Assembly (NCBI GenBank): GCA_041666845.1 | Contig: JBAYGC010000004.1 | Coordinates: 7,965-71,964, forward strand | Length of the DNA: 64,000 bases | Source: Patescibacteria group bacterium | GTDB taxonomy: Bacteria > Patescibacteriota > Patescibacteriia > UM-FILTER-42-10 | Reading direction: 5' to 3' | Shown: positions 2,397 to 31,005 of the stretch, in pieces | Layout of the letters: each line of letters starts with the position of its first letter | Position numbering within the stretch: position 1 is the first letter of the stretch | Position numbers and translations under genes: made by a program | Notes under the pieces: model-generated | What the model was told of the DNA's origin: nothing | Seen by the model: only the letters and a program-made list of their open reading frames with translations | The model's database searches: none

Positions 2397-4292
2397 TTAT
2401 GATTCTGTTTGGTTTGCCATTTCCGCTTCAAACTCTTTTTTGGCATCTTCAATTTCCAGAAGCTGACGCGGATCGGATGTAATCAGCTGGTCTTCAGTAT
2501 ATGAAGCGACAATTTTTATTGCTGCGTGTTTTGCGCCCGCAAAAAATATACCTTCGCCTAAACCTGATTCAATCAATAAATATTTTTCTCCTTCCGTCAG
2601 CATAAAAGTGTTTACCAGGAGATCAATGCCGGCCGGTGATTGTTTCAACAGAAGCTGCAGAGATGAGTTGGTAACAATCGCCTGCCCATACGGAGAGCGC
2701 AAAAAGTCATTAACATCCTGCGTGATTGTCGTGACTCCGAGGTAGTACTTACGGCAGCGTTTTACCAGCGCATAAATAAACTTCGCCGAATCTTCATTCT
2801 GCATCAGCCACCAGGCTTCATCAATAACCAGCACCCTTTTTTTCACTTCGGAACGGACAATATTCCAGATATAGTTAATAATCGTGTAGATTCCGATCGG
2901 TCGCAACTCATCCTCCAAATCGCGGACGCTGAATACCACTAGCTGATTCTGTGTATCAATATTGGTCGGGCTGTTAAACAACCCGGCAAACGTACCTTTG
3001 GTATATTTTTTCAATCTTTCCGACAAATCCGCTCCGCCTTCCATGCCCAATAATATGTCTTCAAAATCCTGCATGATCGGCGCCTCAATCTTGGTCAAAT
3101 CCGATTCTGCGGATATATCCTTCTTCGCATAGGTTTCGATCAAAGCACGGTCTACTAATGAGTCTTCAGCATGTGTCAGATCACCGAGCATTAACCGCAC
3201 CAAACCTTTAAGGGTAATTACCGCCGAACGAATGATATCCGCCGGTTTATCCCTGCCCGAAACCGGACGTGGCAGGTCAAACGGATTAATCTTGCTTTCG
3301 GAGTTCAATGAGATATCAATATAAGCACCGCCTACTGCATCGCTTAAATGTTTATACTCCATTTCCGGATCGATAATAATAACCTCCGTACCAAGCATTA
3401 AGCTTCTGAGTACCTCCAGTTTAACCGCGTAGCTTTTTCCGGCACCGGAAGTGGCAAATACGACCGTATTGGCGTTTTGCAGACTGAAGCGATCAAACAG
3501 GATTAAACTATTATTATGTCGATTGACACCGTACAAGATGCCATTGTCTGATGTAAGTTCGGAAGAAATGAAAGGAAAGGATGAGGCACAAGGGGATGTA
3601 TTCATATTAAATGTGATATACAACTCGTCATTACCGATCGGCAAAGTTGAATTGAACCCCTGTTCCGACTGGAACAAAACGCGCTTGGAATAAACAAGTT
3701 TGGAACCGAAGATGGACTCGATCCTTTCCGTAATCCTGTCGAGTTCCTTTGTATCGTCCGCATAGGCAGATATATATAAAGCATATTGAAAGAATTTTTC
3801 CGTGCCTTGGGTTATTTCATCCCGGAGCATTTCAATATCTTTCAATGCAGTCTCTCTTAGGGGATCACGCGGAGCGCCTTTTTCCGCATCAGAAAGTATC
3901 TGCGCTTCCAGGGCACCGACTTTGTTCTTTAACTGTTTCAGGATTGCCTCGGGTTTTACCGGGTAAAAATACATGGCGATATCCATCGGAATATTCAGAT
4001 TGATCACCGGAGCAAACCAGCCAACGCTGATATATCTGGGGTAAGTAACTACAAAGACAGTACTGACAAATTTGGTGCCGAGCTGGACATAACGCGCATC
4101 AACCTTAAACGCTGAAGGGGCTATTAAATCACGGACTGAAACCACACCGCGCTGGAAAGACCTTTCCGCTTCAAGAATTTCTTTTTCTTCCTGAGCGAGT
4201 GTCCTTTCGCGTTCAGCTTGCTTCAAGGAAGACGCTTCCTTTTTTGCCTCTTCTTCGTCTTTGATATCCGCCTTTTTGAATAGTTGAACCAT
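2397..4292 (-). CDS. virB4: VirB4/TrbE/CagE-family T4SS ATPase, C-terminal ATPase portion
   Basis: Walker A (VVFATSGAGKSY), Walker B-like (RVLVIDEAWWLM), and the FVVTYPRY / LIAPS motifs typical of VirB4/TraE-PrgJ family. 631 aa. Confidence 0.85.
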   Translation of the reverse strand: MVQLFKKADIKDEEEAKKEASSLKQAERERTLAQEEKEILEAERSFQRGVVSVRDLIAPSAFKVDARYVQLGTKFVSTVFVVTYPRYISVGWFAPVINLNIPMDIAMYFYPVKPEAILKQLKNKVGALEAQILSDAEKGAPRDPLRETALKDIEMLRDEITQGTEKFFQYALYISAYADDTKELDRITERIESIFGSKLVYSKRVLFQSEQGFNSTLPIGNDELYITFNMNTSPCASSFPFISSELTSDNGILYGVNRHNNSLILFDRFSLQNANTVVFATSGAGKSYAVKLEVLRSLMLGTEVIIIDPEMEYKHLSDAVGGAYIDISLNSESKINPFDLPRPVSGRDKPADIIRSAVITLKGLVRLMLGDLTHAEDSLVDRALIETYAKKDISAESDLTKIEAPIMQDFEDILLGMEGGADLSERLKKYTKGTFAGLFNSPTNIDTQNQLVVFSVRDLEDELRPIGIYTIINYIWNIVRSEVKKRVLVIDEAWWLMQNEDSAKFIYALVKRCRKYYLGVTTITQDVNDFLRSPYGQAIVTNSSLQLLLKQSPAGIDLLVNTFMLTEGEKYLLIESGLGEGIFFAGAKHAAIKIVASYTEDQLITSDPRQLLEIEDAKKEFEAEMANQTES

Positions 4293-4303
4293 ATTTTTCC
4301 TTT

Positions 4304-5017
4304 TTATTTTTTATCGTCCTCTTCCATTGAACTAGAATCTTCTTCCACCTGAAGCTTATCCAAATCAACTAACTGCTCCTGGCTAAAAACTTCTGGATTA
4401 TATGTATTGTAGAAAAGCTCTATGATACTCTGGGTATCCAGCTGTACGGATTTCAATCCGATTGAAGATAGACCGTCAGTCACATAATCCACCCTTTTGA
4501 ACAGTTCGGTCCGATATTTATCAAACTTTTTACGTTTTAAATGAATGACTGATGTTGGTGATAATACCTCCTTCAATCTGGCAAAATATTTTTTTTGTTT
4601 ATCCGAAATCGGTGAATATGGAACAATAACATAAAATCTCTTGCTCATAATATCCGCGATCTCCACCAGCTCTTTAATGTATTGCTGATACTCCGCCGTC
4701 TGCATCCTGAGCAGTTCATTGGACTGCTCTTTTTCTACTTTCTTCAGCCGGTCCAGGTATTCTTCAATATTCAATTTCCTGGATTGAATTACAATTTGAA
4801 TGGAAAAATCAAACGAATTAAGAAACTGGGTATAGCCCTGAATAACAGCCACCTGCTCATCTTCCGATTTCAATGCGAAATTGATAGAAGAAACCAAAAT
4901 AATCGCCCTTAGGGTTCCATCTTTCATCGCAACTACGTTATCTTTAATCTCCAAAATATCGAGATGACTCTGTGTGGAAGCTTTTGGTTTTTGTCCTGCT
5001 AGCTGGTTAGAATGCAT
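4304..5017 (-). CDS. VirB4 N-terminal (CagE_TrbE_VirB-type) domain encoded as a separate ORF (split VirB4)
   Basis: 237 aa. The motif DGTLRAIILVSSINFALKSEDEQVAVIQGYTQFLNSFDFSIQIVIQSRKLN resembles the VirB4 N-terminal domain. Stops 12 nt upstream of the ATPase ORF in a different frame. The downstream ORF has its own AAGGA ribosome-binding site 6 nt before ATG, so it appears to be a genuine two-ORF arrangement rather than an obvious frameshift. Confidence 0.55.
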   Translation of the reverse strand: MHSNQLAGQKPKASTQSHLDILEIKDNVVAMKDGTLRAIILVSSINFALKSEDEQVAVIQGYTQFLNSFDFSIQIVIQSRKLNIEEYLDRLKKVEKEQSNELLRMQTAEYQQYIKELVEIADIMSKRFYVIVPYSPISDKQKKYFARLKEVLSPTSVIHLKRKKFDKYRTELFKRVDYVTDGLSSIGLKSVQLDTQSIIELFYNTYNPEVFSQEQLVDLDKLQVEEDSSSMEEDDKK

Positions 5018-5037
5018 ATTTGTTTTATTATTTAAGC

Positions 5038-5475
5038 TTAAAAAACGCTGTCCTCATCTTCTTCTTTAAACGCCCCGCCGGTATCAACCACTAGGGATAA
5101 GCGGGTCAATTTTGAATTCGTTACAACCATCTTAGGCGGAACAACCGCTACGGTTTTGATCGGACCTTTATGAACAGATAACCCCTTTTCTTGGACTACT
5201 GTTTTATTCCAAATCTTAATTTTCGGTTTTCTGATAGTGTATACAATATTCAAAATAAAATAGTGGAACGCTTGTCCGTTAATTCTCGCGAAGGCAACAA
5301 TACCGGCAAATCCAAACGTGAATAAAGCAATAAATATAAACAGTACAAAACCGAAAATCTTATATTCGATGAAGATAATACCAAACGCAATCAGGAAAAT
5401 TACAAACTGTCTGACCGAAATAGGTCCGATGATTTTGTCCTCAACTTCGATAAACTGTGGCACCACAAAACGCAT
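5038..5475 (-). CDS. Small double-TM protein, VirB3/PrgI-like candidate
   Basis: 145 aa. Two adjacent TM helices (VIFLIAFGIIFIEYKIFGFVLFIFIALFTFGFAGIVAFA) and a position immediately upstream of VirB4 match the canonical VirB3-VirB4 order. Confidence 0.4.
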   Translation of the reverse strand: MRFVVPQFIEVEDKIIGPISVRQFVIFLIAFGIIFIEYKIFGFVLFIFIALFTFGFAGIVAFARINGQAFHYFILNIVYTIRKPKIKIWNKTVVQEKGLSVHKGPIKTVAVVPPKMVVTNSKLTRLSLVVDTGGAFKEEDEDSVF

Positions 5476-6876: not shown

Positions 6877-7824
6877 TTATTTCAGTGTTGTTATTGGTCT
6901 TGACTGCGTAATATATATTTTATTTTTTTCTATCGCCCATTCAATATCCTGCGGATGCCGATAATGCTTTTCAATTGCTTCACAAACTGTTGCCAGCTTG
7001 ACGATTTGTTTGCCCGTAAGTTTCTGCCGCTCTTGTATTGCCTTTGGCACCTTAACTTTTTTTATTCCCTTAGTTCCGGCCTGGACAATCATTTCTTTTT
7101 GCTCGGAAATATTGACATCCAGGATTGCTTTCTCTTTTTTATCAAATACATACGTATCCGGTGTAATCTGTCCTGAAACTATCGCTTCACCTTGGCCATA
7201 ACCCGCTTCAATCACCATTTGATTCCGGTCATTAGTTACCGGATGGGCCGTAAAGGTGACACCGGACACTTCGGAATTAACCATTTTTTGCACCACCACC
7301 CCCACACTGACTTTGGTTTTATGCAGTTTCTTTTCAAAACGATAGAATATAGCACGCGGAGTAAATAATGAAGACCAGCATTTGCGCACAGCATCAGTCA
7401 AATTGGCACAAGTTACAAACAAATATGTTTCCAATTCCCCTGCCCAGGAAGCCACTGAGGAATCCTCTGCCGTTGCTGAGGAACGGACAGCAACGTATTT
7501 GGTCTTCAATTTGTTAAAGGATGTTATAACTTCCTTTGTAATATCTTCGGGAACGGTGAAATCATGAATCAAGTCCCGAATAGTATTGGATACCCGATCC
7601 ACACTGTTAATGTCATTCAGATTGACTTTCTTTAACAGTGCATCTATCTCAACATCCAGATCGGTTTCCGCTAAGAAACGCTCAAAAGTGCTGGAAAGTA
7701 TTACAAATCCAGGCGGAACTGGCATTTTTACCCTGGTCATCTCCCCCAGTTGTGCGCCTTTCCCTCCTGCTTCCGCTACACTCTTTCTATTTAATTGCGA
7801 AAAAGTTTTGGTAAATTTTGCCAT
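6877..7824 (-). CDS. Standalone PPDK_N-type ATP-grasp nucleotide-binding domain protein (PEP synthase / pyruvate-phosphate-dikinase / rifampin-phosphotransferase N-terminal domain only)
   Basis: 315 aa. Motifs GGKGAQLGEM, VAVRSSATAEDS, ASWAGELETY, FTPRAIFYR, VSVGVVVQKMV and DIEWAIE are diagnostic of Pfam PPDK_N. It has no swivel or PEP-binding domains. Confidence 0.8.
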   Translation of the reverse strand: MAKFTKTFSQLNRKSVAEAGGKGAQLGEMTRVKMPVPPGFVILSSTFERFLAETDLDVEIDALLKKVNLNDINSVDRVSNTIRDLIHDFTVPEDITKEVITSFNKLKTKYVAVRSSATAEDSSVASWAGELETYLFVTCANLTDAVRKCWSSLFTPRAIFYRFEKKLHKTKVSVGVVVQKMVNSEVSGVTFTAHPVTNDRNQMVIEAGYGQGEAIVSGQITPDTYVFDKKEKAILDVNISEQKEMIVQAGTKGIKKVKVPKAIQERQKLTGKQIVKLATVCEAIEKHYRHPQDIEWAIEKNKIYITQSRPITTLK

Positions 7825-7837
7825 GAAAAATCTTTTA

Positions 7838-7866
7838 TATTATAGCATAACTCATAATAATTCACA
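7838..7866 (-). promoter_or_regulatory. Candidate sigma70 promoter for the PPDK_N/T4SS operon (TTGTGA-17-TATAAT on minus strand)
   Basis: The reverse complement reads ttgtgaattattatgagttatgctataat, about 14 nt before the ATG at 7824. Confidence 0.35.
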
Positions 7867-7958
7867 ACATTACATACAGGCGCAATTACACCCCGCCTGC
7901 CTACGACCGAAGCCGTAGGCTACTGGCGGGCAGGAATCGCGCCTGTTCCCTGGCCATT

Positions 7959-7986
7959 GACCCCGTTAGAGCATTTGCTCTAACGG
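7959..7986. promoter_or_regulatory. Perfect 13-bp inverted repeat with 2-nt loop (ccccgttagagca tt tgctctaacgggg) abutting the -35 box; candidate operator or insulating hairpin
   Basis: Seen directly in the sequence. It is absent from the otherwise homologous copy-2 promoter region, where the flanking sequence ccattgac | ttgacaaat is contiguous. It is flanked by a TTGAC direct repeat. Confidence 0.5.
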
Positions 7987-8015
7987 GGTTGACAAATCTA
8001 CAAAAAAGGTATATA
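7987..8015 (+). promoter_or_regulatory. Consensus sigma70 promoter (TTGACA-17-TATAAT) driving GC-rich cassette 1
   Basis: TTGACA at 7987-7992, a 17-nt spacer, and TATAAT at 8010-8015. The ~190-nt conserved leader follows. Confidence 0.7.
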
Positions 8016-8213
8016 ATCCTGTGTTAATTAACCTACTAAAAGCAGGTCTAAGGCAGGCAGTTTTATTGGATTGCGTTAGTCAAATAAAATAGCGTGCTTT
8101 TGCACATGATTGCCCATTCGAAAACAATTGAGGAGTAATCCTCATAACAATACATTCACTACGTGAAGACGTGGTGAAGCAGGAGTATCCACTCCCCAGC
8201 CAAGGAGTTCGTG

Positions 8214-8867
8214 ATGGAACAGTTAGTTTCGCAGATCCTGGCCTGGATCCCCGTAGGTGCCACCCGCGTCTCTCTGCTCGGCCGGCATTCGCTGTCCGTG
8301 CAGATCGGACCGAACGATTCCCGCACGCTCTCGCCCAAGGGCATCAAGCTCTGCCACGAGGTGAGCGACTTCTACAACCGACTCGTCCGCGAACTGGAAA
8401 TACGCTTCGGTGGCAGTGCTGTTTGTTTCCGGTCCGAGATGGCGCGTTCGTTCTCGACCGTCTGGGAGATCTTGAATCCCGACCACATCATCTGCGACCC
8501 GCGCCTCAACCTGCTGGCCAGCCTGAAGAAGATCCAGGGTGGCGAATGGTACAGGAGACGGAAGATCGCTGGAAGATCCGACGTGGCGATCATTTCCGAT
8601 TTTCTAGCGGCCGATCTCAGTGTCGGCGAAGACCAGCCGTTCGGAGAAAATGCCTTGAACTATCGGGAGTGGGCTACCGAACTGGATAATGACACCCGCG
8701 TACGAATCACCTTCGCACACGAGGTGGCCTGTTCCCTGGCGGCCCACCCTTATCTCGACTCCGATGTCGAACCCGGCCTGTCCGAATGCCAGGCTTACCT
8801 GTTCTGTGTGGACGACGCGGGCAATGTCCTACACGTGATCAAGGTCACCCCTCCGGCTACCCTGTAG
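8214..8867 (+). CDS. GC-rich (~62% GC) ORF of unknown function, cassette paralog 1 (217 aa)
   Basis: AAGGAG ribosome-binding site at 8202-8207, 6 nt before ATG at 8214. Homologous along its whole length to 12600..13247, and the changes between the copies are mostly synonymous third-position changes, so it is protein-coding in this frame. The C-terminal 50 aa are identical to the paralog (VAFAHEVACSLAAHPYLDSDVEPGLSECQAYLFCVDD.GNVL.VIKVTPPATL). No recognisable family. The ORF-track start at 8211 is a GTG; the ATG at 8214 is preferred. Confidence 0.7.
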   Translation: MEQLVSQILAWIPVGATRVSLLGRHSLSVQIGPNDSRTLSPKGIKLCHEVSDFYNRLVRELEIRFGGSAVCFRSEMARSFSTVWEILNPDHIICDPRLNLLASLKKIQGGEWYRRRKIAGRSDVAIISDFLAADLSVGEDQPFGENALNYREWATELDNDTRVRITFAHEVACSLAAHPYLDSDVEPGLSECQAYLFCVDDAGNVLHVIKVTPPATL

Positions 8868-8896
8868 CCAACTCGCTCATTCCTCGCTTTTCGAAA

Positions 8897-8936
8897 GGTT
8901 CCCATTCACTCTCACGAATGCTCGGAGCCTTTTTTC
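8897..8936 (+). terminator. Rho-independent terminator of cassette 1 (nested stem ggttcc…ggagcc + T6), identical in cassette 2
   Basis: The outer stem ggttcc/ggagcc encloses the hairpin cattc-actctcac-gaatg and is followed by tttttt. It is 100% identical at 13277-13316. Confidence 0.6.
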
Positions 8937-9043
8937 TTTGGTAAGAAACACCCGCAAGCGCGAATTGCATTTACTATTCAAAAAAATAATGGTTGATTTT
9001 TTTGTCCAGATGTGTTACAATAAGCATATTAATCACCCAAACA

Positions 9044-9366
9044 TGAATATCGAAATAATCCGTAATGTAATACTGGCAATCGGTTGGCCAGTTTTATTTG
9101 TTTTCAGTCTTTACATATTTTTGATTGGTAAAAAGGTTTATTCCGTGATCAAGGGTTCTTTGGTCGGGAAAATTACCAAAGTGCTAATATATTCAATGCT
9201 GATTGAGATGTACAGTCTGGGCATCGTCAGTACGATGTATCTTTTTGAGAATGCTAAAGGAGTATATGTCGTCCTGCCCGTATTTATTGTCTGGGGTTTT
9301 GTCTTTGCCTGGAGCATTAACACAATTAAAAAATCGAGTGATTTAACCAATAATATTACAAAATAA
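9044..9366 (+). CDS. Small 3-TM membrane protein, tandem paralog A
   Basis: Starting at MNIEIIRNVILAIGWPVLF, it aligns with paralog B (MSLELMRNTILFIGWPILI). Shared core: KGSLVGKITKVL.Y.ML.EMYSLGIVST.Y.FENAKGVY.VLPVF. The longer ORF from 8938 is likely an over-extension. Confidence 0.5.
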
Positions 9367-9381
9367 TTAACTAATAAATTT

Positions 9382-9708
9382 ATGTCGCTAGAACTTATGA
9401 GAAATACTATATTATTCATTGGATGGCCGATATTGATCGGCGGCTCAATCTACATTTTTGTCAAAGGCAGGAGCGTTTACCAACTGGTCAAAGGATCGTT
9501 GGTCGGTAAAATAACCAAAGTTCTGGTTTATACCATGCTGGTTGAGATGTATTCACTGGGAATTGTCAGTACCGCTTATATGTTTGAAAATGCCAAAGGA
9601 GTTTACTGGGTACTGCCGGTATTTACCGGGTGGTTCATTACTTTTGTTTGGTCACTGAAAACACTAAAATCTGCTGGCGAGGAAGCCAAAAAAATTACCC
9701 AAGGATAA
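9382..9708 (+). CDS. Small 3-TM membrane protein, tandem paralog B
   Basis: 108 aa, about 60% identical to paralog A. Lies upstream of the histidine kinase. Confidence 0.55.
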   Translation: MSLELMRNTILFIGWPILIGGSIYIFVKGRSVYQLVKGSLVGKITKVLVYTMLVEMYSLGIVSTAYMFENAKGVYWVLPVFTGWFITFVWSLKTLKSAGEEAKKITQG

Positions 9709-9729
9709 AAAATTATTAACGTTAAAAAA

Positions 9730-10005
9730 ATGGCAAACGGTGAAGAATACAAAAATATAATGAGCGAGATGATTAAAAAGCAAATAGTCATCTTAGGGCC
9801 GGATATTGCAATTATGAAGGCAAAGAATGTTACCGAACTGACGATCAACCCGGATGGAGAGGTAACAGAAATCAACGGAGAACCGCAAGTGGCATTACAA
9901 AGATTAATTGACGAATATGTTGCGCTTTCGGGTTTAATTGTCAAAAAGACAATGGAACCTCTATTAGCAAAATATCCTTCAGTAGTAGTTGAGCAAAAAC
10001 AATAA
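9730..10005 (+). CDS. Hypothetical small soluble protein
   Basis: 91-aa ORF between the TM paralogs and the kinase. No motif recognised. Confidence 0.4.
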   Translation: MANGEEYKNIMSEMIKKQIVILGPDIAIMKAKNVTELTINPDGEVTEINGEPQVALQRLIDEYVALSGLIVKKTMEPLLAKYPSVVVEQKQ

Positions 10006-10028
10006 ATCTCAATAGAATTATAGAATTC

Positions 10029-11777
10029 ATGAATCAAACAAATGTAATGTTGATATTTATTTTTTCAGTTGTTATTGTTGCAATTGTTATTAGTTTTTGC
10101 ATTTATATCAGAAAATTACGTGGTACACTAAAAGCTGAAAGTGAAAAAAGAGAATCAGAAAACAGCCGGCGCATGTATGAGCTGTCAATTCTCAAAGAAA
10201 TCGGGGAAAGAGCCGGTTATTCATTAAATACTCAAAGGATTGCCGACATTATCACCGGTTCTTTAAAGGAACTAATTGATTATTCCACTACCTCCTACAT
10301 CCTGGAAGATTCTCAAAAGAAAGAACTGCTTTTTAAGTGCGAAGTTGAAGAAAGCGTCAGCCCGAAATTTGTAGAAGATGTAAAGAGCAGAATGGTAGCG
10401 GCGCTTTCGATATTAACCGACCAGAATTATCAGGAACGAAAGATTGAAGAAGTCGTTGCGGGGACTATTTTGGACGATGAGAATAATGAGCCTTTGAGTT
10501 CATTTTTTAATATTCCGCTGACCGTAGGTGACAAAGTTGTCGGTATTCTGAACGTGTCCAGCACTAAAACTGGCTTGTATAAAGAAGATGAGATGACCAT
10601 CCTGTATAAAATAACCGCACAGGCATCCAATGCCGTTACCCGTCTACAAGACGTATTGGACTCCGAGCAGAGCAAACTGAACGCCATGGTGGTCAGCATG
10701 GCTGACGGAGTATTGATGATTGATAGAGAAAACAGGGTATATGTTATTAATCCCAAAGTTAAAGAACTACTGGGGATAGAAAGTGAAGAAATATCCATAT
10801 TTGATATTATTGAGGCTTTTGAGGGCAAGGTGGATTTCAGAACCAAACTTGAAGAGTGTATAAAACTGAACCGTCAGGAAGTGGTTGAAGAAACCTATCT
10901 GCAACACCGGTACATCCGAATTCTGTTCTCACCAGTCAAAGATAAAAACAAAGAAACTTTAGGAGCTGTGATTATTCTGCATGATATTACACATGACAAA
11001 GAACTGGAAAAGGTTAAAGAGGACTTCACCAGTATGATGGTGCACGATCTACGCTCTCCTTTGAACGGGATCCGGCTGATTTCTGAAATGCTACAGGATA
11101 AGAAAATGCCGAAGGATCAGTTTTTGCAGTCGGCAAAGATGATTCACGAAAGCACTACTAACATCCTGGAGCTGGTTAATGATTTACTGGACGTTGCCAA
11201 ATTAGAAGCAGGTAAATTTATTGTCGCTAAAGAAAAGGGTGATTTGAAATCGGTAATTACCAGCAGGATCAATTTCTTTCAGGCTCTCGCTAACGAAAAA
11301 AATATAAAACTTGATTCCTATTGGGAACCGGATATTGAACAAATTCCGTTTGATGAAAAAGAAATAGTACAAGTTTTGAATAATCTCCTGTCCAACGCAA
11401 TCAAGTTTACCAATAAAAATGGTAAAGTAACCGTACAAACACTGCTCCTAAAAAAAGATGAAGACGTTAATAAGAAAGCGGATGCCAATAAAATTAAATG
11501 GTTTATTTCGAATGCATCCCCTGCTCTGATGCAGAGTAAAAATGATTTGTTAATCTGCGCCGTCACTGATAACGGCAGTGGCATTGAACAGGATAAAATT
11601 AAAAAGCTGTTTAATAAATTCCAGCAGGTAGAAAGCGGTAAAAAATCAGAGGTAAAAGGGACAGGGCTGGGTTTAGTAATCGCCAAGGGCATAATTGAAG
11701 CGCATGGTGGCATGGTTGGTGTTGAATCCGTAATGAAAAAAGGTAGTACGTTTTATTTTACATTACCATTAGAATAA
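10029..11777 (+). CDS. Sensor histidine kinase (N-terminal TM, GAF-like and PAS-like regions, HisKA H-box, HATPase_c)
   Basis: N-terminal TM helix. H-box MVHDLRSPLNGI, N-box LSNAIKFT, G-boxes DNGSGI and GTGLGLVIAKGIIEAHGG. Confidence 0.85.
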   Translation: MNQTNVMLIFIFSVVIVAIVISFCIYIRKLRGTLKAESEKRESENSRRMYELSILKEIGERAGYSLNTQRIADIITGSLKELIDYSTTSYILEDSQKKELLFKCEVEESVSPKFVEDVKSRMVAALSILTDQNYQERKIEEVVAGTILDDENNEPLSSFFNIPLTVGDKVVGILNVSSTKTGLYKEDEMTILYKITAQASNAVTRLQDVLDSEQSKLNAMVVSMADGVLMIDRENRVYVINPKVKELLGIESEEISIFDIIEAFEGKVDFRTKLEECIKLNRQEVVEETYLQHRYIRILFSPVKDKNKETLGAVIILHDITHDKELEKVKEDFTSMMVHDLRSPLNGIRLISEMLQDKKMPKDQFLQSAKMIHESTTNILELVNDLLDVAKLEAGKFIVAKEKGDLKSVITSRINFFQALANEKNIKLDSYWEPDIEQIPFDEKEIVQVLNNLLSNAIKFTNKNGKVTVQTLLLKKDEDVNKKADANKIKWFISNASPALMQSKNDLLICAVTDNGSGIEQDKIKKLFNKFQQVESGKKSEVKGTGLGLVIAKGIIEAHGGMVGVESVMKKGSTFYFTLPLE

Positions 11778-11791
11778 TTTATAATACAAAT

Positions 11792-12160
11792 ATGGCAAAA
11801 AAAATATTAGTCATCGACGATGACGATGCAATCCAACAAGTTGTAAAATCTGCCCTCCTTTCCGAAGGCTATGAGGTAAGAATTGCCGATGATGGCAAAG
11901 AGGGTATAAAAGTAGTTAAAGAATTCGAACCGGACTTGATAATACTGGATATTATAATGCCGGTAATGGATGGTTTGGGGTTCTTAAAAGAAAATAAAAA
12001 TAAATCAATTCCAGTCATTATACTGACTTCTCTGGGCAAAGATGATAATGAGCAGAAATTTATTGATCTGGGAGCCAAGCATTTTCTGCAGAAGAGTATT
12101 GTACATATTGATGATATTAAACAAAAAATTGCTGAGGTATTGAAAGAGAAAAGCAAATAG
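11792..12160 (+). CDS. Stand-alone response-regulator receiver (CheY-like) domain protein
   Basis: KKILVIDDDDAIQ…DLIILDIIMPVMDGLGF…ILTSLG receiver signature. 122 aa, with no output domain. Confidence 0.8.
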   Translation: MAKKILVIDDDDAIQQVVKSALLSEGYEVRIADDGKEGIKVVKEFEPDLIILDIIMPVMDGLGFLKENKNKSIPVIILTSLGKDDNEQKFIDLGAKHFLQKSIVHIDDIKQKIAEVLKEKSK

Positions 12161-12176
12161 CAAATTGGGTAAATTG

Positions 12177-12206
12177 AAAACCTCGGGACAAACCCGGGGT
12201 TTTATT
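12177..12206 (+). terminator. Rho-independent terminator after the two-component module
   Basis: aaaa cctcggg acaaa cccgggg ttttatt. Confidence 0.6.
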
Positions 12207-12217
12207 ATTGATCTTTT

Positions 12218-12362
12218 TTTATTGTTCACCCCCACACTGACTTTGGTTTCGTGTGGTTTCTTCTTATAACGATAGAAAATAGCACATAAAGTGAATAATG
12301 AAGACCAGTATTTGCACACATCATCAATCAAATTGGTTTTAGTAACAAACAAATATGTTTTC
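12218..12362 (-). pseudogene. Relic fragment of a PPDK_N ATP-grasp gene (duplicate of 7283-7432)
   Basis: About 85% nucleotide identity to the internal part of 6877..7824. It encodes …CKYWSSLFTLCAIFYRYKKKPHETKVSVGV…, which matches VRKCWSSLFTPRAIFYRFEKKLHKTKVSVGVV in the intact gene. It lacks both gene ends, and the ORF-track entry 12005..12352 is only this relic. Confidence 0.55.
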
Positions 12363-12380
12363 GCCCTCCCCCTTCAGCCA

Positions 12381-12409
12381 TTGACAAATATGCAAAAATG
12401 GTATATAAT
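12381..12409 (+). promoter_or_regulatory. Consensus sigma70 promoter (TTGACA-17-TATAAT) driving GC-rich cassette 2
   Basis: TTGACA at 12381-12386 and TATAAT at 12404-12409. The leader at 12410-12599 is about 90% identical to the cassette-1 leader. Confidence 0.7.
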
Positions 12410-12599
12410 CCCCTGTTAATTAACCTGCTAAAAGTAGGTCTAAGGCAGGCAGTTTTATTGGATTGCGTTAGTCAAATAAAACAGCGTGCTTTTGCACATA
12501 GTTGCCCATTCGAAAACAATTGAGGAGTAATCCTCATAACAATACATTCGCTGCGTGAGCACGTGGCGAAGCAGGATCCCCCAAGCCAAGGAGTTCGTG

Positions 12600-13247
12600 A
12601 TGGAAATGGGACAGATGATCCAAATGATCTTTTCCGCGATTCCCGACGGTACCACCCGCGTGTCCTTGCTTGGTCGGCATTCGCTGTCCGTGCAGGACGG
12701 GCCCAACGACACCCGCGCGCTCTCGCCCAAGGGCATCGAACTCTGTCACGAGGTGCGTGGTTTCTACGCTCATCTCGTCCTGAATCTGGAACTCATCGGC
12801 AACGCCTCCTACTACTATTCCCAGATGGCACGTTCACTCATAACCATCCGGGAGATTCTGCTTCCGCGTAACTTCATCCTGGATGAACGACTGAACCTGC
12901 TGGCCAGCCTGAAGAAGATACAGGGCGGCGCCTGGTTCAAGGCGCAGAAGGACACCGGGCATTCCGATGTGGAGATTATCCGCGCCTTCCTGACCGATTC
13001 CAGCATCGGCGCCGGCCAGCCGTTCAAGCAGAACGCCGCGAACTACCTGGCCTGGGCTACCGAACCATACGGCCACCGTCTGCGAGTCGCTTTCGCACAT
13101 GAGGTGGCCTGTTCCCTGGCGGCCCACCCCTATCTCGACTCCGATGTCGAACCCGGCCTGTCCGAATGTCAGGCCTACCTGTTCTGCGTGGACGACTCGG
13201 GCAATGTCCTGCGCGTGATCAAGGTCACCCCTCCGGCTACCCTGTAG
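12600..13247 (+). CDS. GC-rich ORF of unknown function, cassette paralog 2 (215 aa)
   Basis: Same ribosome-binding-site context (AAGGAGttcgtgATG). About 60% aa identity to 8214..8867, with an identical C-terminus and 3' UTR. Confidence 0.7.
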   Translation: MEMGQMIQMIFSAIPDGTTRVSLLGRHSLSVQDGPNDTRALSPKGIELCHEVRGFYAHLVLNLELIGNASYYYSQMARSLITIREILLPRNFILDERLNLLASLKKIQGGAWFKAQKDTGHSDVEIIRAFLTDSSIGAGQPFKQNAANYLAWATEPYGHRLRVAFAHEVACSLAAHPYLDSDVEPGLSECQAYLFCVDDSGNVLRVIKVTPPATL

Positions 13248-13276
13248 CCAACTCGCTCATTCCTCGCTTTTCGAAA

Positions 13277-13316
13277 GGTTCCCATTCACTCTCACGAATG
13301 CTCGGAGCCTTTTTTC
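13277..13316 (+). terminator. Rho-independent terminator of cassette 2 (identical to 8897-8936)
   Basis: Identical sequence to the cassette-1 terminator. Confidence 0.6.
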
Positions 13317-13386
13317 TTTGGGAAAAACTTGAAATTTTATCAAAATAATGCCAATATTACACTAATAGACAATTAAACATAAACTT

Positions 13387-14280
13387 ATGAAAGAAATCGG
13401 ACCAATAGCAGTAGATAAAATTGAACAAGGAAAGGAAAGGGAAGGAGAATTACCAAAAATGACCGTCTTTTTATTACGCCATGGAGAAAGTAATAATGAC
13501 AAAACAAATCCCAATCGAGGACTTACTAACAAGGGTACGGAGCAGGTAACAGAAAGCATTAATCAGATATTAAATAGCCTATTGTTAGAAGGCAATCCGG
13601 ACTTTGAAGCATGGGATAATGAAGAGTCAAGAATAACCGCCGTTCAAAATGCCATCCAAAATGTAGAATTCCATCTGAGAGATTCCGGTACTGCCAGAAC
13701 ATTGGAGCAGGTTTGGCTGGAATATGAAATACTAAAACAATACGGAGTACCGGAAGAACACATTTATCTGCCACAAAGCGCATTTGAATATAAAGATAAA
13801 GAACCGGACGAAAAAGCCGGTCCCGGCATAGCTAAAAGGCTCAAAGGAGTTCAAGGAATGGACCAGAACCCGGCATATAGGACTAAAATCAAATCAAAGG
13901 AATACCAAGAACGCGTTGGTGCAACCGGAGACATGATGGCCTGGGCCATTTCACCCGAAGAAGATGTCCCGGATGATGTTGAAAAAAGAAGTCACATGGA
14001 AGAACGTTACGCGTCTGATATTGCGAAACTTGACCGGGTAGTCACCCACAAAATGGAAGGTTATCCAAAACGGGTAGTAGCGATTGCCAATTCCCATGCT
14101 TCCATTGCTACTATTGCCGCCGCCAAAGAATCTGGAATCCCACTCGAAAAACTCATGGGGAAAATCGGGGAAGTGCCGGAAGCTCAGGGTTTGCGTTATG
14201 ATTTTTATGAAGGTGAAACTGAACATACAGCCAAACCCTTCGGCCCTGAGATGGAACAGGTTATAACAGAATTGAGATAA
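13387..14280 (+). CDS. Histidine phosphatase superfamily (phosphoglycerate-mutase/SixA-like, RHG motif) protein
   Basis: The N-terminal motif VFLLRHGES is the catalytic RHG signature of branch-1 histidine phosphatases. The true start is possibly the internal Met at 13459 (MTVFLLRHGES). Confidence 0.65.
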   Translation: MKEIGPIAVDKIEQGKEREGELPKMTVFLLRHGESNNDKTNPNRGLTNKGTEQVTESINQILNSLLLEGNPDFEAWDNEESRITAVQNAIQNVEFHLRDSGTARTLEQVWLEYEILKQYGVPEEHIYLPQSAFEYKDKEPDEKAGPGIAKRLKGVQGMDQNPAYRTKIKSKEYQERVGATGDMMAWAISPEEDVPDDVEKRSHMEERYASDIAKLDRVVTHKMEGYPKRVVAIANSHASIATIAAAKESGIPLEKLMGKIGEVPEAQGLRYDFYEGETEHTAKPFGPEMEQVITELR

Positions 14281-14374: not shown

Positions 14375-15883
14375 TTATTTAATCTTCAATATCCCGGTAT
14401 TACCATCTACTGCCACGATTTGTCCGTCTTTAAGAATCTTGGTTGTCATTCTCAAGCCAATAATTCCGGGAATTCCTGCCTCACGAGCTAGAGTGGCAGG
14501 ATGTGAAGTAATCCCCGGCCCTCCATCACAAATCAGCGCTGAAGCTATAGAAAGCACTTGAGTAAATACAGGCGTAGCTTGCAGAGTACATATAATATCT
14601 CCCCTTTTCACTTTATGGAATGAATCTGGATTAATCACAATCTTCACCGGCCCCTTGGCAACACCCGGTGAAACAGCCATACCTACTAATTCTTTTACGT
14701 TCTTGTCTACTTCCACAAATTTTTTATAATACTGTTTCGCTTTTTCTCCTGTAAACAAACTCGTTTTGCCATTTTCCATAATAAACGCACACAGCTTTAT
14801 TCTTTCATTAAGGATATTACTCATATCTAAATCTTTGGTAAGCATCGGTCTGACTTCTGCGGTTCGCAAATGACGCGCCTGGCGCATGGAAAGCCCGCCA
14901 CGCCGAGCTATTTCCATCAAAATCGGATCATAGTAATAAAGGGTCTGTGAGACAATGCTTTTCCGCAGTTCTTTATAGTAGATCCCTTCGCGCATTGTTT
15001 GAAATAAGCGTTGATGTTTTTTGTCAATTTTTAATTTATCTTGAATCTCATTTATCTTCGTGTCAATTTCTTTTTCCTTTATCAGCATTTTTTCTAATAT
15101 ATTCCCAGGATTTCTTTTTAGATGCTTTTTAAAACGAATGATAAAATCTTCGTATGTTAATACCGGATCGTCATAATCCCTAGTAATCCAAAAGAATTTT
15201 CTCTCATGATTCTTTATTAATCTCAATAACTCTTTATCTTTTTGAATAGAGCTAGTGGTATTTATGACATTTCCCATAAAATAATCTGCCCACTTTTTTC
15301 GCTTATTAATAATCTTGCATATTTTTAAAGCAGCTAAAGTTTCCTGCCTACTTACCATTGCTTTTGTTTCTGTAATAAGAGCATCCACATAATGCGCGGC
15401 TTTTTTTGTATCCGATTCTTTAGCGGCTATATACTCCTGCAAATATTTAAACAAATAGTTTTCTATAGCCAAAATCGGGAAATAGTGGGAATACACCTGT
15501 TTATAGCGTCTTTCGTATTCCTCGTGCAATCCCGCCAACCTGCTGTTACTTACTGTTCTAAGTTTTTTTAGATTATTATTCTTCTTCAGAAATCCATAGA
15601 AGCTTTTGGCAAACGCCTTCTGTGTTTTACCAAGCTTAATAAACATGTCCGGCTTTAGAAATACTATTTTTAAAACATGCTTCCCCACTCGTTCGTGATC
15701 GGCCTTATCAAAATACAAATACATATGATTCTCTTCAAACATCTGCACTATTCTTTTATAGGTAGTCCCGACTACATTTTTTAGCTCTTTTCCGATTGAC
15801 TCCATTGAAAGGTAATTTGGAAAAGGGCTCATCCGCTGCCTTTGGGATATTTGGAACCATACGATTTTTTTATTCTTGATCAT
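14375..15883 (-). CDS. PEP-utilizing-enzyme mobile (phosphohistidine swivel) domain protein, paralog 1; divergent ~390-aa helical N-domain
   Basis: C-terminal GGPGITSHPATLAREAGIPGIIG plus upstream GVAKGPVKIV…GDIICTLQATP match Pfam PEP-utilizers with the catalytic His. No ATP-grasp or PEP-binding TIM barrel. Confidence 0.8.
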   Translation of the reverse strand: MIKNKKIVWFQISQRQRMSPFPNYLSMESIGKELKNVVGTTYKRIVQMFEENHMYLYFDKADHERVGKHVLKIVFLKPDMFIKLGKTQKAFAKSFYGFLKKNNNLKKLRTVSNSRLAGLHEEYERRYKQVYSHYFPILAIENYLFKYLQEYIAAKESDTKKAAHYVDALITETKAMVSRQETLAALKICKIINKRKKWADYFMGNVINTTSSIQKDKELLRLIKNHERKFFWITRDYDDPVLTYEDFIIRFKKHLKRNPGNILEKMLIKEKEIDTKINEIQDKLKIDKKHQRLFQTMREGIYYKELRKSIVSQTLYYYDPILMEIARRGGLSMRQARHLRTAEVRPMLTKDLDMSNILNERIKLCAFIMENGKTSLFTGEKAKQYYKKFVEVDKNVKELVGMAVSPGVAKGPVKIVINPDSFHKVKRGDIICTLQATPVFTQVLSIASALICDGGPGITSHPATLAREAGIPGIIGLRMTTKILKDGQIVAVDGNTGILKIK

Positions 15884-16013
15884 GATACAATAATATGTTT
15901 AGTGCTTTATTAAATTGGCTGTAGCTTTTCATTAAGATAATTAACTTAATTTGGGATTTTTTGTTCATAGTTTGTTACTCGTTAGGAATATGAAGCTTTA
16001 GCTCCATTTGTAT

Positions 16014-17540
16014 TCAATAAACCTGAGAGTTTATATTCCTTTTAATGATGCCTTTTGTCGCGTCTACTTCCACCACGTCACCATCCTTGAATACTTTAGT
16101 GGCAACCTCTGTACCAATTATACATGGTATTCCCAATTCCCGGGATACTATTGCTGCATGGCAGGTAATACCACCAGCATTAGTAACAATGGCAGCTGCT
16201 TTATTCATAGCTGGCACCAATGATGGATTGGTGGAATAACTAAGCAAAATATCACCCTCATTGAATTTGTTCAAATCGCCAGTGGAATTAATTATCTTCA
16301 CAATGCCTTTGGCTTTGCCCGGATAGGCTACTTGACCTCTGATAATATCACTGTGTTTAATATTGGGCTTGGTCTGGACAAATAATTTTTTAAATTCTTT
16401 AGCCTTCGCACCAGTATAAAAGCCAACTCGACCATTTATTAAAATATGAGCTGAACATTGATACCGTTCATTTAATTGATTGTTAGTAAATGCTTTTTTG
16501 TTTTTTAACAAAATATCCTGATACTCAGCTCTAGTGACATAACGAGCCTGTAGTGGTGACCAATAAAAACGACTGGCAATTTCTTGATACCATCTGCCCA
16601 TAGCATAATTATGGTAATAAACCTGAACTTCTTTCCTAATTTCTTTTAAATAAGCTAGCTCCCGAACAATCTCGATTTGGTGCCATTCTTCTTTAGTAAA
16701 AAATGATTTTGCTTTGCTGTGAAACTTTTTAAGTTCAGCTAACCTTTTCTGTTTTATCCTTATTTCTTTATCAGGAAATATCCCCCATCGCCTTTTGACT
16801 AGATCAAGATAATATTCTGGACCAGCAGGCGGACCAACATAATAATATTGCAACCAGCCAAACTTTTCGGCCAGTCTTTTCAAATCGTTTTGAGCGTCAG
16901 TGGATAATTCTCCTATATTTTTACTATTTTTAAACTGTCTTAATAAATCTTTATTTTTCTTTGTTTTACTAATAAATTTTAAAACTGATAAATTTTCTTC
17001 GCTAATAGCGGTCGGCTTAGTAGAAGCAACTAAATTACTAAATACAATTTCCGGGTTACCTAATTTTTTTAACTTAAGCTCTAATTCTTGATATAAATTC
17101 ACCGAAAATTTAACCCTACTCATATCCAGTGTTTGCACTACCAAACCCCATTTCCAGCACTCAGCAAAAACATCATACAAGCCACAGTAAATTTTAAATA
17201 ACTGATTGTTTGTTTTCATCTTTAGATTGTCGGCCAATAAACGTCGACATAATATTTTCATCATTTTAAAAGCATCATAGTGGCCACGACAAAGCTGCTG
17301 AAAAAACTTTTTATCTTTAATTAACTTCTGACCAAAATAATCCCCTGCTTTTATAAACTGCGATTCTACGGGCCCCCAAGTCACAAAATCTTTTTCAAAA
17401 ACAAATAAACTCTCCAACTTTAATTTGTTGGCAGAAAGTTTTGGCAAATCTATCTTAAAATTTTTCTCATTCAAAATACACCAAGGAGTCAAAGCTACAT
17501 TATAATCCTCAACTAAAATGACAAATTTTCTTTTTGGCAT
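16014..17540 (-). CDS. PEP-utilizing mobile domain protein, paralog 2
   Basis: C-terminal GGITCHAAIVSRELGIPCIIG and AYPGKAKGIVKII…GDILLSYSTNP. Confidence 0.8.
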   Translation of the reverse strand: MPKRKFVILVEDYNVALTPWCILNEKNFKIDLPKLSANKLKLESLFVFEKDFVTWGPVESQFIKAGDYFGQKLIKDKKFFQQLCRGHYDAFKMMKILCRRLLADNLKMKTNNQLFKIYCGLYDVFAECWKWGLVVQTLDMSRVKFSVNLYQELELKLKKLGNPEIVFSNLVASTKPTAISEENLSVLKFISKTKKNKDLLRQFKNSKNIGELSTDAQNDLKRLAEKFGWLQYYYVGPPAGPEYYLDLVKRRWGIFPDKEIRIKQKRLAELKKFHSKAKSFFTKEEWHQIEIVRELAYLKEIRKEVQVYYHNYAMGRWYQEIASRFYWSPLQARYVTRAEYQDILLKNKKAFTNNQLNERYQCSAHILINGRVGFYTGAKAKEFKKLFVQTKPNIKHSDIIRGQVAYPGKAKGIVKIINSTGDLNKFNEGDILLSYSTNPSLVPAMNKAAAIVTNAGGITCHAAIVSRELGIPCIIGTEVATKVFKDGDVVEVDATKGIIKRNINSQVY

Positions 17541-17561
17541 ATTATTAAATACATAATCATA

Positions 17562-19028
17562 CTATTTATTCAACTTTTTTATAATTCCCCTATTCGCGTC
17601 CACTTCCACCAGATCGCCATCTTTTAATACTCTAGTAGCAACCTTTGTCCCAATTACACAGGGGACCTTCAATTCCCTAGCTACAATAGCGGCGTGACAA
17701 GTAATACCGCCAGAGTCAGTGATTATTGCACCGGCTTTTTGCATAGCAGGAACGACTTGAGGATTTGTGGATGTTGATACAAGTATATCTCCTTTTTTCA
17801 TTTTCGGTAGATCTAATACCTCGTCAATCCGTTTAACCACACCTTTTACTAAACCCGGATAAGCAGTATTTCCGTAAAGTACTTTGATTTTTGGATCAAC
17901 ACATAACGAACGTGAGATATCTTGAGAGATCCGCTTCACATTATTACCAGAAAGCACTTGATAATCAGTGCCTTTAAATAATACTACCGATTCCCTAATT
18001 CGTTCGTTCATTAATTCGGCACTGATATTGTTTTTCAGCAAGGCATCTTTCATTTCCTTTGGTGAAATCATGGATGCCTGGACTCTGGACAAATGATTTC
18101 TTTTGGCCAATTCTTGAATAAAATCATCCATTAGTAAGTGGGCCTTCTGGTTTAAGAATTTCCGTTCGAATTTCCAAAACCCCAGAGTTCGTAAAGCATG
18201 GATAACTCTTTTTTCCTGAACATTTAACCCAAGTTCCTGTTCCATGTTCTCCTGTTTTTTTGATAACCTATTTGCCGACTTGCCTTTTACAGCTAGCAGC
18301 TCCGTAACTGTCACTTTCTTGGCAGGAAGCAGGCTGAGCCGCTGTCGGATATCTTTTACTCCCCAAGCTGGTCCGTTATAACCATAACCGATCCAAGCGT
18401 ATTTCTTAAGATGATCAGCAACATCTTTTTTTGATAACTCATATCTCAGTTGTTTAAGCCGTAGCTTCAGCAAAGCCTTTTCCTCACGCAATATCACAGT
18501 TTCTCGGGGGGAAGAAGACAAAAGTTGAAAATATTCCCCGATTTTCTCATTACCTTTCCCTAATTTCCGACTAATGATCTGTTCCACTCGGTTGCTCAAA
18601 AGAGGTATTTCCATTTCAGCTGCGGTCGCCATTACACTATAAGTCATCATAGAAATAAATTTTTTCAGCCAATCCTGCCAGCGTGCTCTAAGTTCTTGAC
18701 CGCTCAATGCCGATAAATCACCTGAAAGCTTTTCTGCTGCTTCAAGCATCATCGGTACTTCTTTTTTATTTACTAACTCAATTTTTTTTAGCAAAATATC
18801 ATTTTGCTCTAGACGCTCTAGAATCTTTCTTCCAGGAACGGCTAAAGATCCTTCATTTGTTAGATAACTGAACGAGTTATCCTTATACCAACAGCCAATA
18901 ATACCATCCTCCACACCCACCTTTTTTGCTGCATATTGCGCACACCACCAGTACAGCATGGTGGGATAAAGATAAGCATTTTTATCATGGGCCAGTTCAA
19001 GCCATTTCTTTTGATATTGAATACTCAT
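17562..19028 (-). CDS. PEP-utilizing mobile domain protein, paralog 3
   Basis: C-terminal GGITCHAAIVARELKVPCVIG and AYPGLVKGVVKRI…GDILVSTSTNP. Confidence 0.8.
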   Translation of the reverse strand: MSIQYQKKWLELAHDKNAYLYPTMLYWWCAQYAAKKVGVEDGIIGCWYKDNSFSYLTNEGSLAVPGRKILERLEQNDILLKKIELVNKKEVPMMLEAAEKLSGDLSALSGQELRARWQDWLKKFISMMTYSVMATAAEMEIPLLSNRVEQIISRKLGKGNEKIGEYFQLLSSSPRETVILREEKALLKLRLKQLRYELSKKDVADHLKKYAWIGYGYNGPAWGVKDIRQRLSLLPAKKVTVTELLAVKGKSANRLSKKQENMEQELGLNVQEKRVIHALRTLGFWKFERKFLNQKAHLLMDDFIQELAKRNHLSRVQASMISPKEMKDALLKNNISAELMNERIRESVVLFKGTDYQVLSGNNVKRISQDISRSLCVDPKIKVLYGNTAYPGLVKGVVKRIDEVLDLPKMKKGDILVSTSTNPQVVPAMQKAGAIITDSGGITCHAAIVARELKVPCVIGTKVATRVLKDGDLVEVDANRGIIKKLNK

Positions 19029-19029
19029 A

Positions 19030-20508: not shown

Positions 20509-20553
20509 ATTTTTTCCCGTGAAGATGTTCTAAATATATCACATGTTGATTAA

Positions 20554-28796: not shown

Positions 28797-29422
28797 TTTT
28801 TTATCCTACTTCCCCAGTTAATTGGATCTTTAAGATACTGTTTAATCGCTAAAGTATCTTCGAGATCAAAAATGTTGTGTTTAATACCAAAATTGGCAAT
28901 TTCTTGAAAAGTTACTAGATAGTGAATCTTTATTTTACTTGCTTTCTCGATTTTTTTTGCCAGTTCCTTTTTGACTATTGAAACTACTATAACATCTTCA
29001 ACTTTTGCCTTGTTTTTCCTAAGTACTTTGACGGCATTGTTAATATTGCTTCCAGTCACCATCATATCATCTATCAGTACCACTTTCTGGCCAGGCTTGA
29101 GAATCCCTTCAATTTGTTTTTTTGTACCATTTGTTTTTGGTTTTTTTCTGACGTAAATCATTGGTTTGACAAGTGCTCGGGCGAGAATACCGGCAAAAGC
29201 GATGCCTGCCGATTCATTTCCCGCAATTATATTATAATGCTTTGGCAGTAACCCCTTTAATTGATTAAAAACTATTGATAGTTCCTTGGGGTATGATAAT
29301 AGATTTCTATGGTCAAGATAAATAGGTTGATATAGCCCCGCTCCACCTAATAGCGGCTTTTTGTAATCACAATAAACATTTTGCGCCTTGTATAATGCCT
29401 TTATGATTTTTGGTTTGTTCAT
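28793..29422 (-). CDS. OPRT-like PRTase, paralog 2
   Basis: VVLIDDMMVTGSN PRPP motif. Overlaps neighbouring genes by 4 nt on both sides. Confidence 0.7.
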   Translation of the reverse strand: MNKPKIIKALYKAQNVYCDYKKPLLGGAGLYQPIYLDHRNLLSYPKELSIVFNQLKGLLPKHYNIIAGNESAGIAFAGILARALVKPMIYVRKKPKTNGTKKQIEGILKPGQKVVLIDDMMVTGSNINNAVKVLRKNKAKVEDVIVVSIVKKELAKKIEKASKIKIHYLVTFQEIANFGIKHNIFDLEDTLAIKQYLKDPINWGSRIKK

Positions 29423-30999: not shown

Positions 31000-31005
31000 T
31001 CTAAT

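Follow-up and report, generated by a model that had tools for sequence, protein, structure and literature searches.

What is the long 5′ leader that precedes each of two GC-rich paralogous genes in this Patescibacteria (CPR) MAG, and does it act as RNA? The window (the whole 64,000-nt stretch of MAG DNA analyzed here) contains two monocistronic cassettes on the forward strand that share one layout: promoter, leader of about 190 nt, Shine-Dalgarno (SD) sequence AAGGAG with an ATG start codon, GC-rich ORF, and terminator. Their promoters, at 7989 to 8017 (TTGACA, 17-nt spacer, TATAAT) and 12381 to 12409, match the sigma-70 consensus at 12 of 12 positions and are the only two such matches within positions 7700 to 13500. 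Judging from promoter geometry, transcription of cassette 1 probably starts at about 8023, which places its leader (about 190 nt) at 8023 to 8213; the leader of cassette 2 (about 184 nt) spans 12415 to 12599. The initial annotation had begun the leader at 8016, which falls inside the −10 element, whereas its length of about 190 nt agrees with the 184 nt that separate the −10 from the SD in cassette 1. The SD and start codon of cassette 1 can be read from the sequence at 8202 to 8207 and 8214 to 8216, the SD of cassette 2 lies at 12588 to 12593, and SD and ATG are kept in all close homologs. The ORFs (8214 to 8867, 217 amino acids; 12600 to 13247, 215 amino acids) are 67 to 68% identical at the amino acid level and are followed by strong, identical intrinsic terminators (8893 to 8939 and 13273 to 13319; stem GGUUCC...GGAGCC, then UUUUUU).

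The two leaders are conspicuously alike. A repeat search matched 7989 to 8184 with 12381 to 12576 (196 nt, 92% identical), and pairwise alignment of 7989 to 8213 with 12381 to 12599 gave an identity of 0.919 over 222 aligned positions, with one 6-nt indel. The similarity starts at the first base of the −35 TTGACA, continues past the SD and ATG, and stops at the terminator. Conservation of about 90%, as initially described, is therefore borne out from promoter to ribosome-binding site (92%), and so is its excess over the synonymous sites of the ORFs, since third positions in same-amino-acid codons are 0.76 identical overall. The leader is nevertheless not the standout conserved part of the cassette. 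Third-position identity is 0.59 to 0.76 in the first three quarters of the ORF, but the last quarter is 93% identical in amino acids and 0.88 at third positions, and the 3′ UTR and terminator are about 100% identical (8696 to 8947 versus 13076 to 13327, covering the last ORF quarter, 3′ UTR, and terminator, are 94 to 100% identical). The same last quarter has only 57 to 64% amino acid identity to the ortholog at homolog locus L001, and this pattern suggests that the cassette ends were homogenized by gene conversion or share recent ancestry. Paralog conservation alone is thus a weak argument for function, because it is confounded by gene conversion.

Locus L001 (L-numbers denote retrieved homolog loci, and c1 and c2 the cassettes of the window) has the same synteny as the window, with neighboring proteins 88 to 100% identical. 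Between the two, identity is 0.588 at 4-fold degenerate sites (n = 927), 0.82 in the promoter, 0.90 in the leader between its main hairpin (P2, described below) and the ATG, and 0.67 to 0.69 in P2 itself, where pairing is retained; some other intergenic regions also reach 0.80 to 0.90, a caveat on how these values are read. Among close genomes, sequence conservation in the leader is highest in the 110 nt that follow P2. The idea that the leader is no more conserved than its flanks was dropped, as the 4-fold sites show the flanks to be under strong protein-level constraint. In L001 there is only one cassette, and the TM-TM-91aa-HisK block is found 3 kb farther downstream; the window, for its part, contains a 134-nt relic of a PPDK_N gene right in front of cassette 2 (12227 to 12360, a copy of 7297 to 7430, 84% identical). 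The relic and the different gene order in L001 therefore indicate that the window carries a duplicative segmental rearrangement.

Homogenized cassette ends, a segmental duplication marked by the relic, and similarly conserved intergenic regions elsewhere are what one would expect if the leader had no RNA function at all and its similarity simply reflected recent duplication, gene conversion, or DNA-level signals such as palindromic operators. The properties of P2 make this a very improbable account. P2 is a long irregular hairpin on the forward strand (8050 to 8101 in cassette 1, 12442 to 12493 in cassette 2) that forms the conserved core of the leader; an A run marks its 5′ base, and a U run (8098 to 8101) ends it on the 3′ side. 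A hairpin pairing ttttatt with aataaaa, noticed in the initial annotation, is real and is the middle of P2. P2 occurs in seven leaders (c1, c2, L001, L003, L005, L006/L008, and L009; eight with the L008 variant), and the proteins of these homologs are 32 to 59% identical to the window ORF. Its common form is 5′ (G)AAAGCACGCUGUUUUG ... CAGCGUGCUUUU 3′, with a helix of about 20 to 25 bp; an A run comes before it and 4 to 6 U after it in every case. The 3′ arm, GCGUGCUUUU, is identical in five of seven sequences, and the apical loop is not conserved. P2 lies about 75 nt after the predicted transcription start, with 71 to 116 nt between it and the start codon. Its 5′ flank differs among leaders in both length and sequence, and L001 lacks this flank.

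Covariation supports this structure. RNAalifold on the seven leaders (a small sample of about 5 to 6 independent lineages) gives 20 pairs in P2, 7 of them with compensatory changes, so that the covariation among further homologs that the initial annotation had named as a check is present. Among P2 cells, 88.6% are paired, compared with 34 to 49% in slid-partner controls, and the covariation score is 0.317 versus 0.205, with none of 500 shuffles reaching 0.317. The pairs include 17 G·U and only 3 A·C combinations across the seven sequences, and the hairpin is more stable on the forward strand in 7/7; P2 is therefore a feature of the RNA transcribed from that strand. A covariance model, R1, matches only the P2 leaders, upstream of family ORFs and always in gene orientation, and scores 59 to 76 bits on the forward strand and 23 to 40 bits on the reverse (a difference of 35 to 45 bits). 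Cassette 2 is matched at 74 bits (12438 to 12500), and no further R1 copy occurs elsewhere in the window. P2 thus combines the generic features of a structured cis-regulatory RNA: compensatory substitutions, location on the transcribed strand, and constant placement with respect to a gene family.

The compensatory changes seen even where the proteins are only 32 to 46% identical, the G·U excess over A·C with strand-asymmetric stability, and the position of P2 downstream of the −10, inside the predicted transcript, largely refute an origin without RNA function. The comparative sequence evidence instead supports an RNA-level role for the leader, whether as a cis-regulatory element or as a leader-derived RNA. 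The initial annotation had reached the same conclusion from paralog conservation; the conclusion stands, though on P2 covariation, strand bias, and identity to L001 rather than on that weaker argument.

P2 does not correspond to a described RNA family. The covariance-model search proposed with the initial annotation returned no Rfam family matching the leader: with Rfam 15 at gathering thresholds, the sole match in the whole window was a tRNA (31009 to 31080, reverse strand). Relaxed searches of 7800 to 9000 (E ≤ 10) gave chance-level matches only, none inside the leader, and those of leaders L002, L003, L005, and L008 (E ≤ 1) gave nothing inside the leader. The tRNA lies within a listed ORF (29419 to 31182), whose true start must therefore be further downstream. 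A metagenome search with ACGCYGTTTTG N{15,45} GYGTGYTTTT lacked specificity and returned at least 120 matches, mostly unrelated hairpins; among the matches listed, only L058 (= L003) and L065 (= L001) had the ORF downstream, and no new members emerged. Neither protein relatives nor the P2 pattern were found in viral contigs, and thus there is no sign of a phage-borne element. Our literature search found no description of the leader or the gene cluster. The P2 leader motif is new, its kind (a leader hairpin or attenuator) is familiar, and it is confined to a single clade within a rare CPR gene family.

P2 is missing from seven other homolog leaders. Homologs of this kind nonetheless have long leaders. 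L135, a more distant homolog, has a nonhomologous 69-nt hairpin (about 230 to 310; −26.6 kcal/mol) with a U run in the corresponding place, 97 nt upstream of the ATG. In L011, two tandem paralogs (1380 to 1500 and 2330 to 2473) share a conserved promoter and 5′ leader start of their own.

How would such a hairpin work? We tentatively favor P2 as a leader-embedded intrinsic terminator, that is, an attenuator, behind a very strong promoter, and put the probability of this reading at roughly 0.4. Of the 21 cells for the three pairs beside the GC stem, 18 have A on the 5′ side and U on the 3′ side, and none is flipped to U-A, so that the 3′ U run is always kept. In 7/7 sequences the stem GCACGCUG/CAGCGUGC, or a variant of it, is followed by 4 to 6 U within 8 nt, with a hairpin ΔG of −11 to −22 kcal/mol, and the bona fide 3′ terminators at these loci share the same design of A run, GC-rich stem, and U run; the analogous hairpin with a U run in L135 also speaks for attenuation. 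The U run reaches 5 to 6 U in L005, L006, and L009 and has 4 U in the window clade, where it is followed by a GCAC that extends the helix. With two lower-stem mismatches in addition (G·G and A·A in the window copies), the window's own P2 would be a weak or poor terminator, and a simple terminator scanner made no forward-strand call at P2, owing to its long loop and irregular stem.

The placement of promoters bears on the same question. Near-consensus promoters (TTGACA, 17 nt, TAnnnT) occupy the same relative place in 14/14 retrieved homolog loci, with leaders spanning 72 to 227 nt. A promoter scan of 7700 to 13500 and inspection of the homolog leaders found no convincing second promoter between P2 and the ORF. 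One candidate, a TTGAYA-like box after P2 (AUUGACAAU), was rejected; it has a usable −10 in L005 only, and the scanner made no call. Expression of the ORF therefore requires read-through of P2. In the attenuation model, the very strong promoter would drive transcription, RNA polymerase would be partly or conditionally stopped at P2, and read-through transcripts alone would carry the ORF; downstream, hairpins P3 and P4 and SD-like or anti-SD-like sequences could tune translation or stability. Termination at P2, regulated read-through, and the agent of that regulation are the steps that we infer.

Known leader attenuators (the protein-dependent BglG/SacY-RAT, PyrR, and TRAP systems and LoaP-controlled leader terminators) likewise place a terminator-shaped hairpin in a long leader between promoter and SD and control expression by read-through. 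Unlike them, the P2 leader has neither a RAT-like or other conserved antiterminator nor a nearby cognate RNA-binding regulator, the U run in the window clade is short (4 U), and termination at P2 is a predicted step. No conserved antiterminator pairing was found in the leaders: a purine tract able to pair with the U-rich 5′ arm occurs in L003, L005, and L009 only, and that pairing is much weaker than P2. By inspection, the leaders contain neither the dual hexaloops of ANTAR targets nor a RAT hairpin over the terminator 5′ arm with its regulator. No gene for an RNA-binding regulator is evident near the cassettes, and the neighboring response regulator (11792 to 12160) is receiver-only, with no ANTAR domain.

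The closest rival to attenuation invokes mRNA stability or processing and no termination. P1 (a small hairpin preceding P2) and P2 would be 5′-proximal protective hairpins, or P2 a long double-stranded site for RNase III-type processing, and the hairpins together with SD-like purine tracts would yield a long-lived, highly expressed mRNA. We regard this as possible, with less weight than attenuation. Known 5′ UTR stabilizers include the 5′ hairpin of Escherichia coli ompA, the STAB-SD of Bacillus thuringiensis cry3A, and the leaders of Lactobacillus S-layer genes, and the P2 leader resembles them in its strong promoter, its length, its 5′-proximal hairpins, and its SD-like purine tracts far upstream. 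The near-consensus promoters and long leaders at 14/14 loci suggest selection for high, robust expression, and a helix of some 20 to 25 bp that makes a poor terminator in the window suits protection or processing. In L001 and L006 the hairpin begins about 0 to 3 nt from the predicted transcription start; L136, a homolog without P2, has a long leader hairpin with no U run (about 123 to 205); and SD-like tracts (GGAGAGAG, CCAAGGAG, and GAGGAG) recur in leaders, resembling the STAB-SD principle of Bacillus cry3A. In c1, c2, L003, L005, and L009, however, the first hairpin lies 9 to 30 nt from the predicted start, beyond the tolerance of classical 5′ stabilizers, and the unflipped A/U pairs of P2 preserve a 3′ U run that a pure stability hairpin would not need. 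It is this retained U run that also sets the main hairpin apart from the described stabilizers.

If transcription does end at P2, the short product could itself be the functional molecule: an abundant leader-derived or independent sRNA of about 60 to 125 nt, composed of promoter-proximal P1 and P2 and ending at the U run, that acts in trans, with the ORF expressed by read-through. The order of promoter, hairpins, and terminator-shaped 3′ end is the anatomy of a bacterial sRNA gene, and the lower stem of P2 shows more sequence conservation than pairing alone would demand. Premature termination generates 5′ UTR-derived sRNAs such as SreA and SreB in Listeria and rnTrpL in Sinorhizobium, and the promoter and P2 would likewise release a short, stable leader RNA. 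Here, however, the leader has no conserved single-stranded seed: neither the P1 loop nor the linker, the candidates for target pairing, is conserved, and in L001 the product would be a bare hairpin. Every occurrence of the motif is immediately upstream of a member of the histidine-phosphatase-like family, in the same orientation, and the strong conservation of the 110 nt after P2 argues for a function of the full-length leader. We consider a trans-acting product improbable.

A metabolite riboswitch, in which P2 would serve as the terminator expression platform, was among the options first proposed and is the least likely of them. The leader is long, conserved, and structured and has a terminator-like hairpin in front of an enzyme gene, and in length, structure, and covariation it is like riboswitches with terminator platforms. 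But P2 is a single irregular hairpin with no conserved apical loop; the leaders have no conserved multihelix junction and no conserved unpaired nucleotides, and Rfam gives no match even at E ≤ 1. The sequence 5′ of P2, where an aptamer would have to be sought, is variable and, as L001 demonstrates, dispensable, and the region after P2 is not conserved in distant homologs. A riboswitch is accordingly very unlikely. Given the lack of a conserved aptamer and the dispensability of the sequence 5′ of P2, attenuation at P2 would more likely depend on a trans-acting protein or RNA, or amount to simple leakiness, than respond to a small molecule.

The remainder of the leader is also structured. The two leaders have more favorable folds than their dinucleotide shuffles (z = −3.8 for cassette 1 and −3.6 for cassette 2; 0 of 200 shuffles as good). 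P1 (8031 to 8047, ACCUACU/AGCAGGU in the minimum free energy [MFE] fold; 12423 to 12439 in cassette 2) differs at one pair between cassettes, A·C versus G·U. In L003, L005, L006, and L009 its place is taken by a hairpin of unrelated sequence, and L001 lacks it, with P2 beginning at the predicted transcription start; by inspection, P1 loops are 3 to 16 nt long and have no conserved bases. A GUGC-UUUU-GCAC hairpin (8094 to 8105), pointed out in the initial annotation, is an alternative fold overlapping P2 at its 3′ arm and U run. It is invariant in c1, c2, and L001, and L003 has GCGC with a U·G pair kept; conservation is confined to these four closest sequences, and the hairpin is missing from L005, L006, and L009. 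A ttaattaa palindrome (8025 to 8032), also flagged at the time, fares worse and is conserved in neither L001 nor L003.

Downstream of P2, P3 (8129 to 8144; 12521 to 12536 in cassette 2) is a UGAGGA-GUAA-UCCUCA hairpin in which an SD-like arm pairs with an anti-SD-like arm. It is identical in c1, c2, and L001; L003 has CAGAGGA-CAUG-UCCUCUG, with an altered loop and the closing pair changed from U-A to A-U. P4 (8155 to 8178, UUCACUACGU-GAAG-ACGUGGUGAA; 12547 to 12570 in cassette 2) shows one compensatory A-U to G-C change and one A-U to G-U change between cassettes, carries C-G for U-G in L001, and is absent from L003. In distant homologs, the TTGAYAAU box is the only alignable sequence 3′ of P2, usually accompanied by a small hairpin right before the SD. 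Several candidates were discarded. P5 (8182 to 8195) occurs in cassette 1 but is deleted in cassette 2 and missing in L001, which disqualifies it as a general anti-SD hairpin; a long-range closing stem in the MFE fold (CCUGU/GCAGGA) reaches upstream of the predicted transcription start and is not conserved in L001; and small leader ORFs, such as one on the reverse strand beginning MRITPQLFSNGQ, occur only in three near-identical leaders, lack an SD, and have no counterparts in L003, L005, L006, or L009.

The ORF behind the leader fits the histidine phosphatase superfamily, on the basis of a modeled phosphoglycerate mutase-like (PGM-like) fold, an RH(S) motif, and a second histidine. The AF2 model (pLDDT 97.5, 56-sequence alignment) had top Foldseek matches that were all dPGM, RosC, SixA, or the MutT1 C-terminal domain (E = 7e−8 to 3e−6, TM 0.5 to 0.6), and a PDB profile search gave PGAM5 and SixA on the RHS motif (E = 0.02 to 0.06). 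R24, H25, and H169 are invariant and E170 nearly so in a 24-sequence alignment. With branch 1 of the superfamily (dPGM, SixA, PGAM5, and RosC) the predicted protein thus shares the fold, an N-terminal RH(S), and a C-terminal H-E; it differs in having no Pfam match at threshold (His_Phos_1 at E = 0.14 in one member), very high GC3, and very fast evolution. GC3 is 0.74 to 0.77 (0.84 in L001) in a genome of 41% GC. The ORF is 59% identical in amino acids to its L001 ortholog, compared with 88 to 100% for its neighbors, with change nearly equal at all codon positions, and these ORFs thus evolve fast or are under diversifying selection. An exhaustive profile search found about 70 clusters of 190 to 240 amino acids, with Patescibacteria the only taxon named, and a profile scan of genome contigs with a 4-protein alignment found only the L001 contig.

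A PPDK_N gene lies upstream of the ORF in all 8 loci with flanking gene sequence (in the window, a stand-alone PPDK_N ATP-grasp gene at 6877 to 7824), PEP-utilizer genes are nearby in 5 loci, and PrgI/TraC-like type IV secretion genes in 3. From this association we suggest that the ORF product might remove phosphate from a phospho-histidine or phospho-metabolite of the PPDK_N/PEP-utilizer system. At least five paralogs of about 500 amino acids, each ending in a PEP-utilizers (phospho-histidine swivel) domain, occupy 14375 to 23249, with a repeat copy at 29510 to 29601; with PPDK_N and the cassettes they look like an unusual split, multiparalog phosphotransfer system that several Patescibacteria share. 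The PPDK_N/cassette locus is immediately preceded by a type IV secretion set (2397 to 5475; VirB4-like ATPase, TraC-like, and PrgI) that is 93 to 100% identical to L001 in amino acids. Between the cassettes lie tandem paralogous small membrane-protein genes (9040 to 9366 and 9382 to 9708) and a GAF-PAS histidine kinase (10029 to 11777), followed by the receiver-only response regulator. Further along, the window contains giant ORFs of 1,220 (37138 to 40800) and 3,114 (40817 to 50161) amino acids.

To our knowledge, regulatory RNAs have hardly been reported from Patescibacteria (CPR), which have very few classical regulators; the P2 leader offers a concrete, testable handle on gene control in this group, and R1 can be used to annotate more genomes. 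In a more ambitious and rather doubtful extension of the attenuation reading, P2 would be a Patescibacteria-specific regulatory RNA, a conditional terminator read by a trans factor, that gates a rapidly diversifying histidine-phosphatase-like protein working with PPDK_N/PEP-utilizer proteins and type IV secretion, perhaps at the host interface. Should P2 be no more than a stabilizing hairpin, the leader would belong to ordinary 5′ UTR biology.

Palindromes flank the cassettes at several loci. A perfect 28-bp palindrome, CCCCGTTAGAGCA-TT-TGCTCTAACGGGG (7961 to 7988), abuts the −35 of cassette 1 and is missing from cassette 2; L001 has its exact reverse complement, with the central TT replaced by AA. 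Possible roles are those of an operator or an insulator hairpin, or it may be a flipped cruciform. Slightly upstream, a GC-rich nested hairpin (7866 to 7947) is inserted in a CAGGCGC...GCGCCTG palindrome that is without the insert in L001. L003 carries a 28-nt palindrome, GCAGGCGCGAATTC(A/G)AATTCGCGCCTGC, on both sides of its cassette (about 786 to 813 and 1796 to 1823). As a repeated mobile element, the palindrome GCAGGCGCGAATTC was rejected, since its occurrence in the window is not above chance; a half-site relic of the L003-type palindrome is present at 8954 to 8967.
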